From a virus (lineage: Duplodnaviria; Heunggongvirae; Uroviricota; Caudoviricetes): a DNA stretch of 7,353 nucleotides. Below are positions 1-7,353 of the stretch, piece by piece; positions within the stretch are counted from its first letter, which is position 1; each line of letters opens with the position of its first letter. The position numbers and the translations under genes are program-made. Where the stretch lies: IMG/VR virus record IMGVR_UViG_2529293037_000021, positions 1 to 7,353 of that record; one strand, written 5' to 3'. The notes under the pieces are model-generated. The model had not been told where the DNA came from, did no database searches, and saw only the letters and a program-made list of their open reading frames with translations.

Positions 1-1
1 G

Positions 2-103
2 ATAGGGCCGGAGGCGGCAGGCAGTCTTGTGCAGCTGATTGACCAGCGGGTGCAGGCGGTGATGCTGTCCATGCGACGTGACGGAGGAATGCTGAGTGGC
101 TGA
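2..103 (+). CDS. C-terminal end of tail tape-measure protein (lambda gpH-like), partial at 5' end
   Basis: Open frame running in from the window start, stop TGA at 101-103 overlapping the GTG start of M at 96 (GTGGCTGA). Position directly upstream of M matches lambda H-M order. Assignment is by synteny only; the 33 translated residues are too short for me to recognise. Confidence 0.45.
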   Translation: MGPEAAGSLVQLIDQRVQAVMLSMRRDGGMLSG

Positions 104-437
104 GATAAAAACGCTGCATCTGGTCCCGCGTGAAGGGATGCAGGTGAGTGAGAAGCCGTCGGTGGTGAGGGTGCGGTTTGGTGACGGTTATGAACAGCGC
201 CGCCCCACAGGGCTGAATCCTCAACTGAAGACGTTTCAGGCGGTGTTCCGGGTGACGGATGAGTCAACCCGGCGCTGGCTGGATGAATTTTTATCCTGGC
301 ATGGTGGTTACCGTGCCTTTTTGTGGCGACCGCCGAAACATAACCGGACGGTGAGGGTTGTGTGCCGTGAGTGGAGTGTCACGGATAATGCCCGGTACAG
401 TGATTTCAGTTGCACGATAGAGCAGGTGGTGAACTGA
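96..437 (+). CDS. M: Minor tail protein M (lambda gpM family)
   Basis: 113-aa ORF with GTG start preceded by GGAGGAA (84-90). Translation contains VRFGDGY...HGG...FLW...EQVVN, which aligns along its length with lambda gpM as I recall it. Stop overlaps the L start (TGATG at 435-439). Confidence 0.88.
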   Translation: MAEIKTLHLVPREGMQVSEKPSVVRVRFGDGYEQRRPTGLNPQLKTFQAVFRVTDESTRRWLDEFLSWHGGYRAFLWRPPKHNRTVRVVCREWSVTDNARYSDFSCTIEQVVN

Positions 438-1134
438 TGCAGAATATTCATGAAGAAAGCCTGAACGAGTCGGTTAAGTCAGAGCAGTCACCGCGGGTGG
501 TGCTCTGGGAAATCGACCTGACGGTGCAGGGCGGTGAGCGGTATTTTTTCTGCAATGAGCTGAATGAAAAAAGGGAGCCGGTGACCTGGCAGGGGCGGCA
601 ATATCAGGCGTACCCGATTGAGGGCAGTGGCTTTGAGATGAACGGAAAGGGCAGCAGTGCCCGCCCGTCGCTGACGGTGTCCAATCTGTTCGGTCTTGTC
701 ACCGGGATGGCGGAGGATTTGCAGAGCCTGGTGGGTGCCACGGTGGTCCGCCGCCGGGTGTATGCCCGTTTTCTGGATGCGGTGAATTTTGTGGCGGGCA
801 ATCCGGAGGCGACCCGGAGCAGGAGCTGAGCGACCGCTGGGTGGTGGAGCAGATGTCAGAGCTGACGGCCATGACAGCCTCGTTTGTGCTGGCAACACCG
901 ACGGAGACGGACGGAGCGCTGTTTCCCGGTCGCATCATGCTGGCGAACACCTGTATGTGGGATTACCGGGGAGATGAATGCGGTTATCACGGTCCTGCGG
1001 TGGCGGATGAGTTCGACAACCCCACCACGGATATCCGGAAGGACAGATGCAGTAAATGCATGCGCGGGTGTGAGATGCGCGGCATGGTGGCTAATTTCGG
1101 CGGTTTCCTTTCCATTAACAAACTTTCGCAGTAA
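437..1134 (+). pseudogene. L: Tail tip protein L (lambda gpL family), interrupted by a 1-nt frameshift near 808-812
   Basis: N-terminal part (ATG 437, frame 2: MQNIHEESLNE...VVLWEIDLT...GERYFFCNE...VTWQGRQYQ...VNFVAGNPEA) stops at TGA 827-829. The C-terminal part continues in frame 1 from about 811 (DPEQELSDRWVVEQMSEL...TPTETDG...FPGRIMLANTC...NFGGFLSINKLSQ, stop 1132-1134). Both parts are collinear with lambda gpL, and restoring one base in GAGGCG(G)ACCCGG rejoins them. The true start is ATG 437, not the upstream in-frame ATG at 410. Confidence 0.85.
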
Positions 1135-1139
1135 ATCCA

Positions 1140-1883
1140 ATGACACAGACAGAATCAGCGATTCTGGCGCATGCCCGGCGGTGTGTGCCTGCGGAGTCGT
1201 GCGGCTTCGTGGTGAGAACGCCGGAGGGGGAGCGGTATATCCCTTGTGTGAATATCTCTGCAGAGCCGGAGGCGTATTTTCGTATTGCACCGGAAGACTG
1301 GCTGCGGGCAGAGATGCAGGGGGAGATTGTGGCACTGGTCCACAGTCATCCCGGTGGTCTGCCCTGGCTGAGCGAGGCCGACCGGCGGCTGCAGATAAAA
1401 AGTGCACTGTCCTGGTGGCTGGTCTGCCGGGGGGAAATTCATAAATTCCGCTGTGTGCCACATCTGACAGGACGGCGCTTTGAGCACGGGGTGACGGACT
1501 GTTACACGCTGTTCCGGGATGCTTATCATCTGGCGGGGACTGAAATGCCGGATTTTGAGCGTGAGGATGACTGGTGGCGCAACGGTCAGAACCTTTACCT
1601 GGACAATATGGCGGTCACCGGCTTTTACCGGGTGCCCCTGTCCTCTGCACAGGCGGGCGATATTCTGCTGTGCTGCTTTGGTGCTTCGGTACCGAACCAT
1701 GCCGCCATTTACTGCGGCAACGGTGAGCTGCTTCACCATCTGCCTGAACAACTGAGTAAACGGGAGAGGTATTCCGAAAAATGGCAACGACGAACGCATT
1801 CTGTCTGGCGTCACCGCCACTGGCACGCATCTGCCTTCACGGGGATTTGCAACGATTTGGCCGCCGCCTCAGCCTGTATGTGA
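1140..1883 (+). CDS. K: Tail assembly protein K (lambda gpK family) with N-terminal JAB/MPN metalloprotease-like domain and C-terminal NlpC/P60 cysteine peptidase-like domain
   Basis: 247-aa ORF starting 5 nt after the L stop. JAMM-type motif HSHPGGLPWLSEAD (H-x-H-x7-S-x2-D) with upstream Glu residues; NlpC/P60-like catalytic Cys in GVTDCYTLF and His in PNHAAIY/LLHH. Strong collinearity with lambda gpK. Confidence 0.9.
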   Translation: MTQTESAILAHARRCVPAESCGFVVRTPEGERYIPCVNISAEPEAYFRIAPEDWLRAEMQGEIVALVHSHPGGLPWLSEADRRLQIKSALSWWLVCRGEIHKFRCVPHLTGRRFEHGVTDCYTLFRDAYHLAGTEMPDFEREDDWWRNGQNLYLDNMAVTGFYRVPLSSAQAGDILLCCFGASVPNHAAIYCGNGELLHHLPEQLSKRERYSEKWQRRTHSVWRHRHWHASAFTGICNDLAAASACM

Positions 1884-2461
1884 ACACGGCAGCGGAAGCC
1901 ATCCGTGCCCTGTCGCTGCAGATGCCGGGATTCCGCCGTCAGATGAACGAAGGCTGGTACCAGATACGTATTCGCGGTGAGGACACGGCACCGGAGGCGG
2001 TGTACGCCCGTCTTCACGAACCTCTGGGTGAGGGGGCGGTCATCCATATTGTGCCGCGACTGGCCGGGGCCGGAAAGGGCGGACTGCAGATTGTGCTGGG
2101 GGCGGCAGCCATCGTGGGCTCTTTCTTCACGGCCGGGGCATCAATGGCGTTATGGGGTTCAGCCCTGGCAGCCGGTGGTTTTTCTGCCACCACGATGCTG
2201 TTTTCACTGGGGGCCAGCATGATTCTGGGCGGTGTGGCCCAGATGCTGGCCCCGAAGGCAAAAACACCGGATTACCGCGCAACGGATAACGGCAGACAGA
2301 ACACGTACTTTTCGTCACTGGATAACATGATTGCCCAGGGGAACCCGATGCCGGTGCCTTATGGTGAAATGCTGGTTGGTTCACGACGGATATCCCAGGA
2401 CATCAGCACCCGTGATGAGGGCGGAGACGGGAAGGTGGTGGTTATCGGGCGGCAGGCATGA
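1781..2461 (+). CDS. I: Tail assembly protein I (lambda gpI family; N-terminal ubiquitin-like domain, Gly/Ala-rich hydrophobic C-terminal half)
   Basis: 226-aa ORF overlapping the 3' end of K by 103 nt in a different frame, as in lambda K/I. Translation contains ARICLHGDLQRFGRR, AVIHIVPR, FSLGASMILGGVAQMLAPKA, TDNGRQNTYFSSLDNM and ends VVVIGRQA, closely matching lambda gpI. Confidence 0.9.
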   Translation: MATTNAFCLASPPLARICLHGDLQRFGRRLSLYVNTAAEAIRALSLQMPGFRRQMNEGWYQIRIRGEDTAPEAVYARLHEPLGEGAVIHIVPRLAGAGKGGLQIVLGAAAIVGSFFTAGASMALWGSALAAGGFSATTMLFSLGASMILGGVAQMLAPKAKTPDYRATDNGRQNTYFSSLDNMIAQGNPMPVPYGEMLVGSRRISQDISTRDEGGDGKVVVIGRQA

Positions 2462-2472
2462 AAGCGAAAAAA

Positions 2473-2504
2473 TCCCGCAGTGCTCACGGACAGGAACTGC
2501 GGGA
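2473..2504 (-). terminator. Putative rho-independent terminator for minus-strand (sodC) transcription
   Basis: Inverted repeat TCCCGCAGT (2473-2481) / ACTGCGGGA (2496-2504), 9-bp stem with 14-nt loop. On the minus strand it is followed immediately by a T6 run (the + strand A-run at 2467-2472). Sits just after the I stop codon. Confidence 0.5.
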
Positions 2505-2622
2505 GCGTTACGAAGATTGAGTGTAAGGAATTATTCTTATGTCACGACAAAAACATTAACTCAGAGAGGGAGGATGTGCCGTTCTTTTCAGGGAGAAAGG
2601 ATTTATCGTCCTGAGGAATAAA

Positions 2623-2644
2623 GGTAAGGGGCCCGCCCCTTACC
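2623..2644. terminator. GC-rich hairpin between the convergent I and sodC genes; possible bidirectional or sodC-proximal terminator
   Basis: Perfect inverted repeat GGTAAGGGG-CCCG-CCCCTTACC (9-bp stem, 4-nt loop), 8 nt beyond the sodC stop. On the minus strand it is followed by TTTATTCC; on the + strand by TGACTGATTATTG (weak U-tract). Confidence 0.45.
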
Positions 2645-2651
2645 TGACTGA

Positions 2652-3179
2652 TTATTGAATGATGCCGCAGGCCATTCTCGCACCACCACCGCCCAGGGGC
2701 TCCGGATGGTCATGATGGTTATCACCGCCAGCATGAAGCATGAGAGAACGCCCTTTAATCTCTTTTAATGAGTTCAGTCTCGGGGCCAGGACCGGGTAGT
2801 TCGCTTTTCCGTCATGCGTCACGAACAGCGCAGGGAGGTCGCCCAGGTGTCCATCCGGAGACCAGGGGCCAAGATGTTTGCCGGTGTTTTTCGGGTCAAA
2901 GTGACCGCCAGCCGATAATGCTGCGACCGGTTTTCCGTCTTTCAGTGCCGGGGCGCAATTTCCTTTTTCGTGCACATGAAAACCATGAATGCCTTCAGAC
3001 AGAGAGTGAAGGGCTGGTGTGAACAGCAGACCGTAGGGGGTCTCCTGAATGGTTATTTTTCCAATGCTGACTTCTTTTCCGTCAGCACTGACAAGGTTCA
3101 TTGGGACTTCCTGTTCTGCTGCGTATCCGCATGATGCTGCTGTCAGCATGGCAATGGCAGCAATGATTTTACATTTCAT
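2652..3179 (-). CDS. sodC: Periplasmic Cu,Zn superoxide dismutase (SodC family), prophage-encoded cargo gene
   Basis: 175-aa ORF (ATG is the reverse complement of 3177-3179; SD GAGGG about 5 nt upstream on the minus strand). N-terminal signal-peptide-like segment [20 protein letters not shown]. Conserved Cu/Zn-SOD motifs: [10 protein letters not shown] (Cu His ligands, disulfide Cys), GGHFDP (bridging His), [17 protein letters not shown] (Zn ligands), [21 protein letters not shown] (Arg and second disulfide Cys). Closely resembles Salmonella SodCI and E. coli prophage SodC as I recall them. The six-frame ORF extends to 3686, but that N-terminal extension is antisense to J and is not part of the gene. 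Confidence 0.93.
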
Positions 3180-3312
3180 AAAACCCTCATTAATTCCGTT
3201 AACAGACTGAGCTTGCTGGTTACAGGGTAACAAACAGCGTTCTGATGATATCGCGCAATAGCTGTGCAATATCCTATCACTGCGATTAATAATACCAATT
3301 GAGAGGAACATT
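3180..3312. promoter_or_regulatory. Intergenic region between divergent sodC and J; probable sodC promoter region and the J ribosome-binding site
   Basis: 133-bp AT-richer spacer. J SD GAGAGGA at 3301-3307 before ATG 3313. On the minus strand, a weak sigma70-like pair TTGGTA (reverse complement of 3293-3298) -16 nt- TAGGAT (reverse complement of 3271-3276) is the best candidate I can see. No strong consensus promoter is visible. Confidence 0.3.
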
Positions 3313-4881
3313 ATGGGTAAAGGTGGCGGCAGGGCGCACACGCCGGTTGAGGCAAAGGACAATCTTAAGTCCACGCAGATGATGAGCGTGATTGATGCCA
3401 TTGGTGAAGGGCCGATTGAAGGTCCGGTGAAGGGGCTGCAGAGTATCCTGGTGAACAAAACCCCGCTGACGGACACGGACGGTAATCCTGTGATACATGG
3501 TGTGACAGCGGTCTGGCGCGCCGGGGAGCAGGAGCAGACACCACCTGAAGGCTTTGAGTCTTCCGGAGCTGAAACCGCACTGGGCGTGGAAGTGACGAAG
3601 GCAAAGCCGGTGACGCGCACCATTACGTCCGCGAACATTGACCGCCTGCGGGTCACCTTCGGGGTGCAGTCACTGTTGGAGACCACCTCAAAGGGCGACC
3701 GTAATCACTCTTCTGTCCGACTGCTGATTCAGTTGCAGCGTAACGGTAACTGGGTGACGGAAAAGGATGTCACCATTAACGGCAAGACCACCTCGCAGTT
3801 CCTGGCGTCGGTGATTCTGGATAATCTGCCTCCCCGTCCCTTTAACATCCGGATGGTCCGGGAGACGGCGGACAGCACCACGGACCAGCTGCAGAATAAG
3901 ACGCTCTGGTCGTCATACACCGAAATCATCGATGTGAAACAGTGCTACCCGAACACGGCGATTGTGGGGCTGCAGGTGGATGCGGAGCAGTTTGGCGGCC
4001 AGCAGATGACGGTGAACTACCATATCCGAGGTCGCATCATCCAGGTGCCGTCAAACTATGACCCGGAAAAACGCACGTACAGCGGCATCTGGGACGGCAG
4101 CCTGAAACCGGCATACAGCAACAACCCGGCCTGGTGCCTGTGGGACATGCTGACTCACCCGCGCTACGGCATGGGAAAACGCCTGGGGGCCGCGGATGTG
4201 GACAAGTGGGCGCTGTATGCCATCGGGCAGTACTGTGACCAGCGTGTCCCTGATGGCTTCGGAGGGACAGAGCCGCGGATGACCTTTAATGCGTACCTGT
4301 CACAACAGCGTAAGGCGTGGGACGTTCTCAGTGATTTCTGCTCGGCGATGCGCTGTATGCCGGTATGGAACGGCCAGACGCTGACGTTCGTTCAGGACCG
4401 CCCGTCGGATGTGGTGTGGCCGTACACCAACTGCGATGTGGTGGTGGATGATAACGGCGTGGGGTTTCGCTACAGCTTCAGCGCCCTGAAGGACCGCCAC
4501 ACGGCGGTGGAGGTGAATTACACCGACCCGCAGAACGGCTGGCAGACCTCCACGGAACTGGTGGAAGACCCGGAAGCCATACTGCGCTACGGGCGCAACC
4601 TGCTGAAGATGGATGCGTTCGGCTGCACCAGTCGCGGTCAGGCCCACCGTGCCGGGCTGTGGGTGATAAAGACCGGACTGCTGGAAACGCAGACGGTGGA
4701 TTTCACGCTCGGGTCACAGGGGCTGCGTCACACACCCGGTGACATTATTGAAATCTGTGATAACGACTATGCCGGGACCATGACCGGCGGACGTGTCCTG
4801 TCCATCGATGCCGCCAGCCGCACGCGCAGTACTGCGACCAGACGGTCCCGGATGGTTTCGGGGGCACAGAGCCGCGGATGA
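3313..4881 (+). CDS. J: Host specificity / central tail fibre protein J (lambda gpJ family), N-terminal fragment ending at a frameshift created by an internal tandem duplication
   Basis: 522-aa ORF starting [22 protein letters not shown], collinear with the lambda gpJ N-terminus ([67 protein letters not shown]) up to ...[13 protein letters not shown]. It then reads the second repeat copy out of frame ([18 protein letters not shown]) and stops at TGA 4879-4881. Confidence 0.85.
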
Positions 4882-5421
4882 CTTTCAATGCGTACCTGTC
4901 ACAACAGCGTAAGGCGTGGGACGTTCTCAGTGATTTCTGCTCGGCGATGCGCCGTATGCCGGTATGGAACGGCAAGACGCTGACGTTTGTGCAGGACCGT
5001 CCGTCAGATGTGGTGTGGCCCTACACCAGCAGTGATGTGGTGGTGGATGATAACGGCGTGGGGTTTCGCTACAGCTTCAGCGCCCTGAAGGACCGCCACA
5101 CGGCGGTGGAGGTGAATTACACCGACCCGCAGAACGGCTGGCAGACCTCCACGGAACTGGTGGAAGACCCGGAAGCCATACTGCGCTACGGGCGCAACCT
5201 GCTGAAGATGGATGCGTTCGGCTGCACCAGTCGCGGTCAGGCCCACCGTGCCGGGCTGTGGGTGATAAAGACCGGACTGCTGGAAACGCAGACGATGGAT
5301 TTCACGCTCGGGTCACAGGGGCTGCGTCACACACCCGGTGACATTATTGAAATCTGTGATAACGACTATGCCGGGACCATGACCGGCGGACGTGTCCTGT
5401 CCATCGATGCCGCCAGCCGCA
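4224..5421 (+). repeat. Imperfect tandem direct duplication inside J, period 599 bp (copy 1 about 4224-4822, copy 2 about 4823-5421)
   Basis: Direct comparison of the two segments: both start ...GCAGTACTG... and end ...ATCGATGCCGCCAGCCGCAC. About 20 mismatches cluster in the first ~215 bp of the unit and only 1 in the remaining ~385 bp. 599 is not a multiple of 3. The near-identical antisense ORFs at 4300-4647 and 5004-5246 in the ORF track are a by-product of the repeat. Confidence 0.9.
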
Positions 5422-7353
5422 CCCTGACACTGGACCGTGAGGTGACCCTGCCGGAGACAGGTACACCGACGGTGAACCTGATTAACGGCAGCGGTAAGCC
5501 GGTGAGCGTGGCCATCACTGCACACCCCGCGCCGGACCGGATACAGGTCAGCACCCTGCCGGATGGCGTGGAGACATACGGTGTATGGGGACTCTCCCTG
5601 CCGTCACTGCGTCGTCGCCTGTTCCGCTGTGTCTCCGTCCGGGAAAACACGGACGGCACCTTTGCCATCACGGCGGTGCAGCACGTACCGGAAAAAGAAG
5701 CCATCGTGGATAACGGTGCCCGCTTTGAGCCGCAGTCAGGCACCCTGAACAGCGTCATCCCTCCGGCAGTGCAGCACCTGACGGTGGAGGTGAGCGCAGC
5801 TGACGGCCAGTATCTGGCGCAGGTGAAATGGGACACGCCGCGGGTGGTGAAGGGCGTGCGCTTCAGTCTGCGCCTGACCAGCGGAAGCGGAGAAGGCAGC
5901 CGTCTGGTGACCACCGCCATCACTGCGGATACAGAGCATCGTTCCAGTGGTCTGCCGCCGGGGGAATACACCCTGACGGTCAGGGCGATTAACAGTTATG
6001 GCCAGCAGGGGGAACCGGCCACCACCACGTTCAGGATTAATGCACCTGCGGTACCCGCCACGATTGAGCTGACACCGGGCTATTTTCAGATAACAGCGGT
6101 CCCGCGTCTTGCGGTGTATGACCCGACGGTACAGTTTGAGTTCTGGTTTTCGGAGACAAAAATCGCAGATACATCTCAGGTGGAAACCTCTGCCCGTTAT
6201 CTGGGGACCGGCAGTCAGTGGACTGTCCAGGGAAGCCGGATTAAGCCGGGGACGGATTTCTGGTTTTACGTGCGCAGCGTCAACCTGGTGGGGAAATCTG
6301 CGTTTGTGGAAGTCAGCGGGCAGCCCAGCAATGATGGTGAAGGGTATCTGGAATTTTTCCGGGAAAAAATAGGAAAACTGCATCTGGCTCAGGGGCTATG
6401 GGAGCTGATAGACAACAGCCAGCTTGCGGATGAGATGGCGGAGATGAAGACCACCATCACGGAAACCCGCAATGAAATCACACAGACGGTCAGTAAAACG
6501 CTGGAGAACCAGAGCGCCATCATACAGCAGATACAGCGCGTGCAGAAGGACACAAATGATGACCTTGCTGCACTTTACATGCTGAAGGTACAGAAAACAA
6601 AAAATGGCATACCCTATGTTGCCGGTATTGGAGCGGGGATTGAGGATACTGATGGCCAGCCCCTGAGCAACATACTGCTGCTGGCTGACCGTATTGCGAT
6701 GATTAACCCGGAGGACGGCAACACCACGCCGTTATTTGTGGCGCAGGGGAATCAGTTGTTCATGAACGATGTGTTCCTGAAACGACTGTTTGCGGTGAGT
6801 ATCACGTCATCCGCCAATCCCCCGACGTTTTCCCTGACGCCGGAGGGCAGGCTGACCGCAAGAAATGCTGATATCAGCGGTAACGTGAATGCGAATTCCG
6901 GGACGCTCAACAACGTCACGATTAACGGGAACTGTCGGGTTCTGGGAAAACTGTCCGCGAACCAGATTGAAGGCGATCTCGTTAAAACAGTGGGCAAAGC
7001 TTTCCCCCGGGACTCCCGTGCACCGGAGCGGTGGCCATCAGGGACCATTACCGTCAGGGTTTATGACGATCAGCCGTTTGACCGGCAGATTGTTATTCCG
7101 GCGGTGGCATTCAGCGGCGCTAAACATGAGAGAGAGCATACTGATATTTACTCCTCATGCCGTCTGATAGTGCGGAAAAACGGTGCTGAAATTTATAACC
7201 GTACCGCGCTGGATAATACGCTGATTTACAGTGGCGTTATTGATATGCCTGCCGGTCACGGTCACATGACGCTGGAGTTTTCGGTGTCAGCATGGCTGGT
7301 AAATAACTGGTATCCCACAGCAAGTATCAGCGATTTGCTGGTTGTGGTGATGA
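4878..7353 (+). CDS. J: Host specificity protein J, C-terminal portion (second repeat copy onward) in the shifted frame; partial, runs past the 3' end of the window
   Basis: The frame with codons at positions divisible by 3 is open from the stop at 4761-4763 to the window end. The first ATG is at 4878 and overlaps the stop of the N-terminal fragment (ATGA). Translation ([15 protein letters not shown]...[18 protein letters not shown]...[33 protein letters not shown]...[11 protein letters not shown]...VFLKRL...[14 protein letters not shown]...) is collinear with the lambda gpJ middle and C-terminal regions. Whether translation actually starts at 4878 is unknown. Confidence 0.6.

Follow-up and report, generated by a model that had tools for sequence, protein, structure and literature searches.

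A 599-nt duplication that breaks the tail gene J in a prophage contig of Escherichia coli DEC3E is shared with finished O157 genomes

The window analysed here, a 7,353-nt contig of a defective lambda-like prophage from the draft genome of E. coli DEC3E, carries a host-specificity gene J that is interrupted by a 599-nt head-to-tail duplication. The junction between the two copies also occurs in finished genomes of the same serotype, and it is highly probable that the duplication is a genuine inherited lesion which turned J into a pseudogene, having formed within one Sp12-type allele before exchange between paralogues altered its surroundings. Sixty-five finished genomes carry this lesion under a pseudogene annotation, as a case of ordinary prophage decay; the feature in the window is no departure from known biology.

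The repeat and its gene

The window corresponds in full to contig AIFI01000016.1 (assembly GCA_000249335.2); the serotype of DEC3E is O157:H7 (PMC8924650). The contig contains the following features of a lambdoid tail module:

1 to 103, plus strand: 3′ end of the tape-measure gene, which runs past the left contig edge (the EC4115 tape-measure coding sequence ends at position 4935 of locus L001, equivalent to window position 103)
96 to 437, plus strand: tail protein M, 113 aa (Pfam Phage_min_tail)
437 to 1134, plus strand: minor tail protein L, divided by a 1-nt deletion near 811 into reading frames at 437–829 and 853–1134
1140 to 1883, plus strand: tail protein K, 247 aa (Pfam Prok-JAB, NLPC_P60)
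1880 to 2461, plus strand: tail assembly protein I, 193 aa (Pfam Lambda_tail_I)
2652 to 3179, minus strand: intact prophage Cu/Zn superoxide dismutase gene sodC, 175 aa (Pfam Sod_Cu, E 3.9e-32)
3313 to 4881, plus strand: J N-terminal open reading frame, 522 aa, made up of J residues 1–504 and 18 out-of-frame codons before a TGA
4225 to 4823, plus strand: copy 1 of the 599-nt unit, whose first 43 nt are of a J allele type unusual in O157
4823 to 4824, plus strand: duplication junction (...AGCCGCAC/GCGCAGTAC...), where the parental allele shows no microhomology
4824 to 5422, plus strand: copy 2 of the 599-nt unit, whose first ~210 nt are Sp12-type
4878 to 7353, plus strand: J C-terminal reading frame from its first in-frame ATG (Pfam Ig_J, Ig_J_second, Phage_Tail_Tip, Ig_GpJ_C)

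J is thus placed after M, L, K and I in the tail module. The two reading frames of L cover positions 3–98 and 113–206 of the Phage_tail_L profile, and the lesion between them is one G absent relative to relatives. The exact sequence of the I protein was found on 12 contigs. The 522-aa product bears the NCBI name ‘host specificity protein [Escherichia coli DEC3E]’. At its other end J is cut by the contig edge 32 nt short of its stop (J ends at 9372 in locus L003, in which the window end corresponds to 9340).

An earlier sequence-only reading of the window had named the interrupted gene gpJ, and domain analysis confirmed this. With one copy of the repeat removed, J contains the Pfam series FNIII-A_GpJ (86–207), Phage-tail_3 (330–498), Ig_J (609–712), Ig_J_second (714–816), Phage_Tail_Tip (871–998) and Ig_GpJ_C (1027–1146), all above cut-offs, and its residues 1–506 match residues 1–506 of the lambda gpJ chain 8iyk_J with an E-value of 2.3e-283. 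The window gene shares its family, its domain order and the M-L-K-I-J gene order with lambda gpJ (PDB 8IYK, 8K35, 8XCG; 9E7M), but differs in that its frame is broken, sodC lies between I and J, and the receptor-binding end falls past the contig edge. The position of sodC between I and J is also that found in Sakai Sp4 and Sp10, and window positions 2501–3300, which span sodC, are identical to the corresponding parts of the O121 and Rafaela_II loci.

Self-comparison revealed a direct repeat without gaps at an offset of 599 nt (4225–4823 and 4824–5422), as expected from the claim of a 599-bp head-to-tail duplication inside J. The span first proposed for it, 4224–5421, had the correct unit length but started one position early, on a C that 4224 and 4823 share by chance. 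The length and identity of the repeat lead us to discount a chance origin; TRF reported no repeat, its longest period of 500 being shorter than the 599-nt unit. Between the copies there are 22 mismatches (96.3% identity), 21 of them at 4226–4434, within the first 211 nt, and one at 4696, in line with the approximately 20 clustered differences noted previously. The description of most of these as synonymous was only roughly right: 19 J-frame codons differ between the copies, 12 of them synonymously, while the remaining seven change a residue (G305A, R311T, C348R, Q355K, N373S, C374S and V462M). The unit corresponds to J residues 305–504 plus 2 nt and spans essentially the Phage-tail_3 domain (330–498), which places the duplicated part in the hub-domain region of gpJ. 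In gpJ the hub domains are followed by two FNIII domains, a helical shaft, a central fibre and the receptor-binding domain, and gpJ is seated under the gpM/gpL ring by way of its hub domains (PMC11101478).

Because 599 is 3 × 199 + 2 and hence not a multiple of 3, the J frame is left at the junction. As had been claimed, the frame is lost at 4823/4824 and the open reading frame 3313–4881 ends, after 18 out-of-frame codons, at a TGA at 4879–4881. In copy 2, the J frame meets no stop between 4764 and the window end. Deleting either copy yields 1,147 stop-free codons up to the window end, so the duplication is the sole J lesion within the window. As it stands, the gene lacks the single uninterrupted reading frame of about 1,130–1,160 codons of a functional J and is a pseudogene of the gpJ/TipJ family, not a working member.

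The junction in finished genomes

A search of 5,426 complete E. coli genomes with a 40-nt probe centred on the junction (4803–4842) found it in 65 genomes, 64 with an exact and one with a near match, in all cases on the chromosome. Each of these genomes has one site save NE122, which has two, and the serotype is O157 in every record that names one. In O157:H7 EC4115, TW14359, SS17 and further strains, the ydfJ-proximal J (ECH74115_RS11115 / RS11110) has the identical junction and unit boundaries as the window, and the 300 nt around the window junction are 99.7% identical to genomes of this EC4115 type. Unit boundaries are likewise equal in the loci L001, L004, L005 and L007, the last of which is a draft contig and the only one in IMG/VR with the junction. 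The two copies differ at three positions in EC4115, four in NE122 and two in L007. At the loci of EC4115, SS17 and NE122, two partial J pseudogenes are annotated (‘host specificity protein J, missing C-terminus’ and ‘phage tail tip protein, missing N-terminus’), and collapsing the EC4115 duplication restores an intact J of 3,480 nt.

The junction was not found in any of the ten Sakai lambdoid J loci, in NE1092-2, whose ydfJ-locus J is intact, in the phage collection, or among GTDB species representatives. Literature searches returned no description of the 599-nt J duplication. A 41-nt junction variant in SS17, considered as a frame-restoring change, proved to be a compensating insertion/deletion pair and is most likely a sequencing error.

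These distributions indicate that the junction goes back to one event, inherited within an O157:H7 sublineage, of which the lesion would be a marker, and that the lesion in the window is, by descent, the split J of the EC4115 type. Its presence in 65 finished genomes means that the junction is no invention of assembly and that the DEC3E reads must contain it. Given that the source is a draft assembly, that the genome has about ten J paralogues and that the repeat makes an assembly graph loop, one might suspect that the duplication is purely an artefact and that all DEC3E J genes are single-copy, but we give this practically no credence, as a 40-nt identity with the junction of 65 independently finished genomes of the same serotype is beyond assembler invention. 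Of the possibilities left standing by the sequence-only reading, a gene with a single copy in reality is thereby refuted for the junction, and an assembly chimera survives for the DEC3E contig but not for the junction itself.

Allele make-up of the DEC3E contig

Outside the junction, the window and the finished genomes part company. The EC4115-type locus has an Sp12-type 5′ flank with a 342-bp I–J spacer and no sodC, and an Sp11-type 3′ flank with nleG cargo, whereas the window has Sp4-like flanks with sodC; over J the window is only 94.8% identical to the EC4115 locus. Excluding the repeat, the window J is nearly identical to the intact sodC-linked Sp4-like J of O157:H7 Rafaela_II, with stretches of 1,166 nt and 1,612 nt free of mismatches and an identity of 99.25% across 4824–7353. 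Copy 1 starts with a 43-nt patch (4224–4266) whose allele type is absent from typical O157 genomes and from all 16 O157 paralogue loci that served as donors. The best complete-genome matches to 4208–4282 were 98.7% in commensals and 97.3% in O157, none of them exact, and the patch therefore points to at least one unusual J allele in DEC3E. From 4267 at least to 4715, copy 1 is identical to the Rafaela_II Sp4-like J, and its last stretch, to 4823, is common to several paralogues. Copy 2 opens with an Sp12-type patch and is then Sp4-like again, with contig-private substitutions at 4953, 4974 and 5295 that each change a residue. The suggestion that different J alleles are involved was correct. 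At the three sites that separate the EC4115 copies, both window copies have the same bases. The junction alone identifies the locus of origin; the cluster of 21 differences therefore records which allele flanks the junction in the contig and not the duplication event. The pattern of divergent copies is specific to the DEC3E contig and most likely stems from paralogue mixing.

How the junction came to lie in an Sp4-like, sodC-linked J can be read in two ways. The one we favour, and consider probable, is an assembler path or consensus that mixed resident paralogues. The other, possible but clearly the less likely of the two, is that the sodC-linked duplicated J is real in DEC3E and was produced by gene conversion or a double crossover from the J of the ydfJ-proximal prophage into the Sp4-like J. 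Several observations speak for mixing and against a real arrangement. First, the window has the marks of a collapsed repeat: it is the whole of a short contig of multi-copy sequence, and its arrangement is absent from finished genomes of the same clone. Second, the combination of sodC and the junction occurs in none of the 5,426 complete genomes, and the K and truncated-J proteins are found on the DEC3E contig only, among about 15 billion proteins. The best complete-genome matches to the whole window were 96.9% (O121) and 97.7% over 94% of the window (O157), and the best match to L-K-I was 97.6%. Third, window positions 1–799 match two EC4115 paralogues at 100% identity, in both of which L breaks exactly there, and a SNP and the 1-nt deletion in the window L fall within 12 nt past this 799/800 breakpoint. 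Lastly, about seven variants are private to the contig, among them the three residue-changing substitutions of copy 2.

The contig can also be decomposed into segments of O157-resident paralogues, with 7,301 of its 7,353 positions in exact matches and 35 tiles in total. We had considered this fine patchwork as proof of chimerism and rejected it: with the same donors, the Rafaela_II Sp4-like allele required 46 tiles and the O121 allele 57, and because these control alleles from complete genomes tile just as finely, the argument was downgraded. That natural alleles are mosaic to an equal degree counts in favour of a real sodC-linked duplicated J, as do three further points. NE122 has two copies of the junction, one of them adjoining tccP/espJ, so the lesion may occupy at least two prophages within a genuine genome. 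Sakai Sp12, Sp14 and Sp15 have one 1-nt J deletion in common, from which it follows that lesions do spread between resident prophages. Finally, the 43-nt patch of copy 1 is not explained by a pure mix of typical O157 paralogues. On the side of mixing, the draft contig L007 places the junction in yet another context, together with an L-to-J deletion; this context corresponds in EC4115 to a prophage whose J has no duplication, and its combination with the junction was present in none of the complete-genome loci examined. Allele-level conclusions from short repeat contigs of draft EHEC genomes are not trustworthy.

Proposed order of events and the fate of the broken J

The duplication, the frameshift, the sharing of the junction and the allele type of each segment are observed; the order of events, like the choice between a chimeric and a real context, we infer. 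In the parental allele the unit is preceded by ...GCCATT/GCGCAG and followed by ...CGCAC/CCTGAC, and the new joint reads CGCAC/GCGCAG. Comparing the parental allele ends, we found no microhomology at this joint, which therefore represents an illegitimate rather than a homology-guided join. Allele types were assigned with a variant table against the Sakai paralogues. In EC4115, the upstream sequence and copy 1 are Sp12-type, while copy 2 is Sp12-type and the same as copy 1 over its first ~210 nt and then Sp11-type. The EC4115 copies differ at J nt 1281, 1314 and 1483, all of which are allele-diagnostic, with copy 1 being Sp12-type at 3/3 and copy 2 Sp11-type at 3/3 (Sp14-type fits copy 2 at two of the three). 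Downstream of these sites the sequence is identical to Sp11/Sp14-type J. The collapsed EC4115 J has no differences from the intact ydfJ-locus J over nt 1119–3480 and 54–71 differences upstream, and the first ~210 nt of copy 2 differ from the Sp11 J at the ydfJ locus at 11 sites.

On this basis we propose that a single illegitimate, microhomology-free join produced the head-to-tail duplication of 599 nt (J codons 305–504 plus 2 nt), and that its birthplace was most likely one Sakai-Sp12-type J allele in a lambdoid prophage of an O157:H7 sublineage. Translation departs from J at the junction and stops 57 nt later, which reduces J to an N-terminal stub of 522 aa and a C-terminal part that is not translated. 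Later homologous exchange among J paralogues, in a serotype with about ten near-identical tail modules, would have substituted the sequence flanking the junction on both sides; in the lineage of the complete genomes, a homologous crossover inside copy 2 (nt 1122–1281) would have joined it to the 3′ part of an Sp11-type J. The finished-genome version of the lesion would thus be an ordinary tandem duplication followed by paralogue recombination.

An improbable alternative is that one-step unequal or illegitimate recombination between two J alleles made the junction, with copy 1 contributed by one allele and copy 2 by the other. The allele-diagnostic nature of all three EC4115 copy differences fits such a join, as do the EC4115 flanks, Sp12-type on the 5′ side and identical to Sp11/Sp14-type on the 3′ side. 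However, EC4115 copy 2 starts with ~210 nt of Sp12-type sequence identical to copy 1, so that a one-step join requires a 3′ parent that already had an Sp12-type patch and is less economical, whereas duplication and a subsequent crossover within copy 2 can do without any hypothetical parent. The join was also made without homology. Moreover, the same junction is paired with a different allele on both sides in the window, which makes the pairing secondary in at least one case: as the flanking alleles differ between the window and the complete genomes, the junction predates at least one of the pairings. The proposal that the junction was created by joining the two alleles now seen in the contig is not supported, given that 65 complete genomes carry it and both EC4115 copies start Sp12-type, and the join offers no homology to steer unequal homologous recombination. 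The idea that the junction marks a deletion by which the tandem Sakai-type prophages Sp11 and Sp12 became fused was likewise rejected, as EC4115 keeps both of them in tandem.

A prophage with the lesion is unable to form a tail tip of its own. A far more elaborate scenario, in which the lesion moves among co-resident prophages by gene conversion, is real in the sodC-linked prophage of DEC3E and also yields a hub-less fragment from an ATGA, seems to us very unlikely. If true, it would amount to concerted decay of the O157 prophage pool, and the hub-less C-terminal J fragment might be borrowed in trans or hinder the tail assembly of other resident phages.

We also consider it very unlikely that the split J itself is functional, with termination-reinitiation at the ATGA (4878–4881) giving a C-terminal fragment, residues 323 to the end, for receptor binding. 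The ATG at 4878–4880 does overlap the TGA at 4879–4881, as pointed out by the sequence-only reading, and it lies in the J frame as Met323, with the frame open as far as the contig end. But it is preceded by no convincing Shine-Dalgarno sequence, a weak GAG at most, and the restart product would be without residues 1–322 and thus without part of the hub domains. Both J halves are pseudogenes according to PGAP, and the three contig-private substitutions in copy 2, all residue-changing, offer a weak argument against constraint. The gene caller of the contig index starts the second open reading frame at 5058. We also dismissed programmed frameshifting or a read-through J containing an internal repeat of 200 aa, since no signal backed them and a doubled hub domain would result.

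A broken J fits the known picture of an O157 prophage pool that is largely defective and survives via inter-prophage exchange. Defective host-specificity genes have been documented in this pool (Asadulghani et al. 2009, PMC2669165). The defective J of Sakai Sp12, Sp14 and Sp15 resembles that of the window in being an inactivated host-specificity gene with a lesion common to paralogues; the Sakai lesions consist of the 1-nt deletion near J nt 1110, plus others, as opposed to the 599-nt duplication in the window.

Module exchange and a common J lesion in resident prophages

EC4115 retains a tandem prophage pair at ydfJ (L001 and L107, 2.07-2.13 Mb), and two tandem prophages are likewise found at ydfJ in Sakai. 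In the ydfJ-proximal prophage of EC4115, an Sp12-type morphogenesis module gives way to an Sp11-type J 3' end, lom, fibre and nleG cargo, with the right-hand crossover of this module swap falling within copy 2 of the 599-nt duplication. A lesion of J is common to three Sakai prophages, Sp12 (L097), Sp14 (L006) and Sp15 (L104). All three have the same 1-nt deletion at J nt ~1110 and the same first J ORF of 1,176 nt; evidently, an inactivating lesion was passed from one resident prophage to another.

The duplication junction in other prophage contexts

Among complete genomes, only NE122 (NZ_CP038319.1) has two copies of the junction, the joint between the two copies of the duplication. One of them, at 9001-9040 of locus L005, adjoins tccP/espJ, which corresponds to the Sp14 position, yet its tail genes are Sp12-type. 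The draft contig L007 (IMGVR_UViG_2531839369_000016, 1-4950) carries an L-to-J deletion upstream of the junction. This architecture is that of Sakai Sp9 and the EC4115 prophage in the Sp12 position, but J in those two prophages lacks the duplication, unlike J in L007. The contig is a second instance of the junction in a context absent from all complete-genome loci examined. Just past the junction, the SS17 record (L004, about 5040-5050) gains one nucleotide and loses another close by (GCGAGCCAGAGGTCCC versus GCGACCAGACGGTCCC). The pair does not restore the J frame and is most likely a sequencing error.

sodC and the broken L gene

Two features of the window lie upstream of J:

2652-3179, minus strand: the prophage Cu/Zn superoxide dismutase gene sodC, intact and encoding 175 aa, between I and J
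437-1134: minor tail gene L, broken near 808-811 by a 1-nt deletion (GCGGAC to GCGAC)

A SNP adjoins the 1-nt deletion in L. Across window positions 2501-3300, which include the whole of sodC, there were 0 differences from the O121 locus or from the Sp4-like, sodC-linked Rafaela_II locus of O157:H7; sodC was absent between I and J in the junction-bearing complete-genome loci examined (EC4115, SS17 and NE122). The 100% identity of the window to EC4115 paralogues ends at 799/800, the same position at which L is broken in those paralogues themselves, and the window's L lesion follows 12 nt further on. The lesion near 808-811 has the appearance of a switch between paralogues or of an error in the consensus.

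Private substitutions and an unusual allele patch in the window's J

Three substitutions in copy 2, at 4953, 4974 and 5295 (C348R, Q355K and V462M, respectively), are private, being seen in no other allele among about 110 loci examined; that at 4953 was found in 0 of 5,426 genomes. They represent either pseudogene drift or consensus errors. At the start of copy 1, a 43-nt patch (4224-4266) is of a J allele type absent from the 16 O157 donor paralogue loci and has no exact match among complete genomes. Position 4251 within it carries the Sp4-type base, and the closest natural matches to the patch, with 1-2 mismatches, come from commensal E. coli strains and from two IMG/VR contigs.
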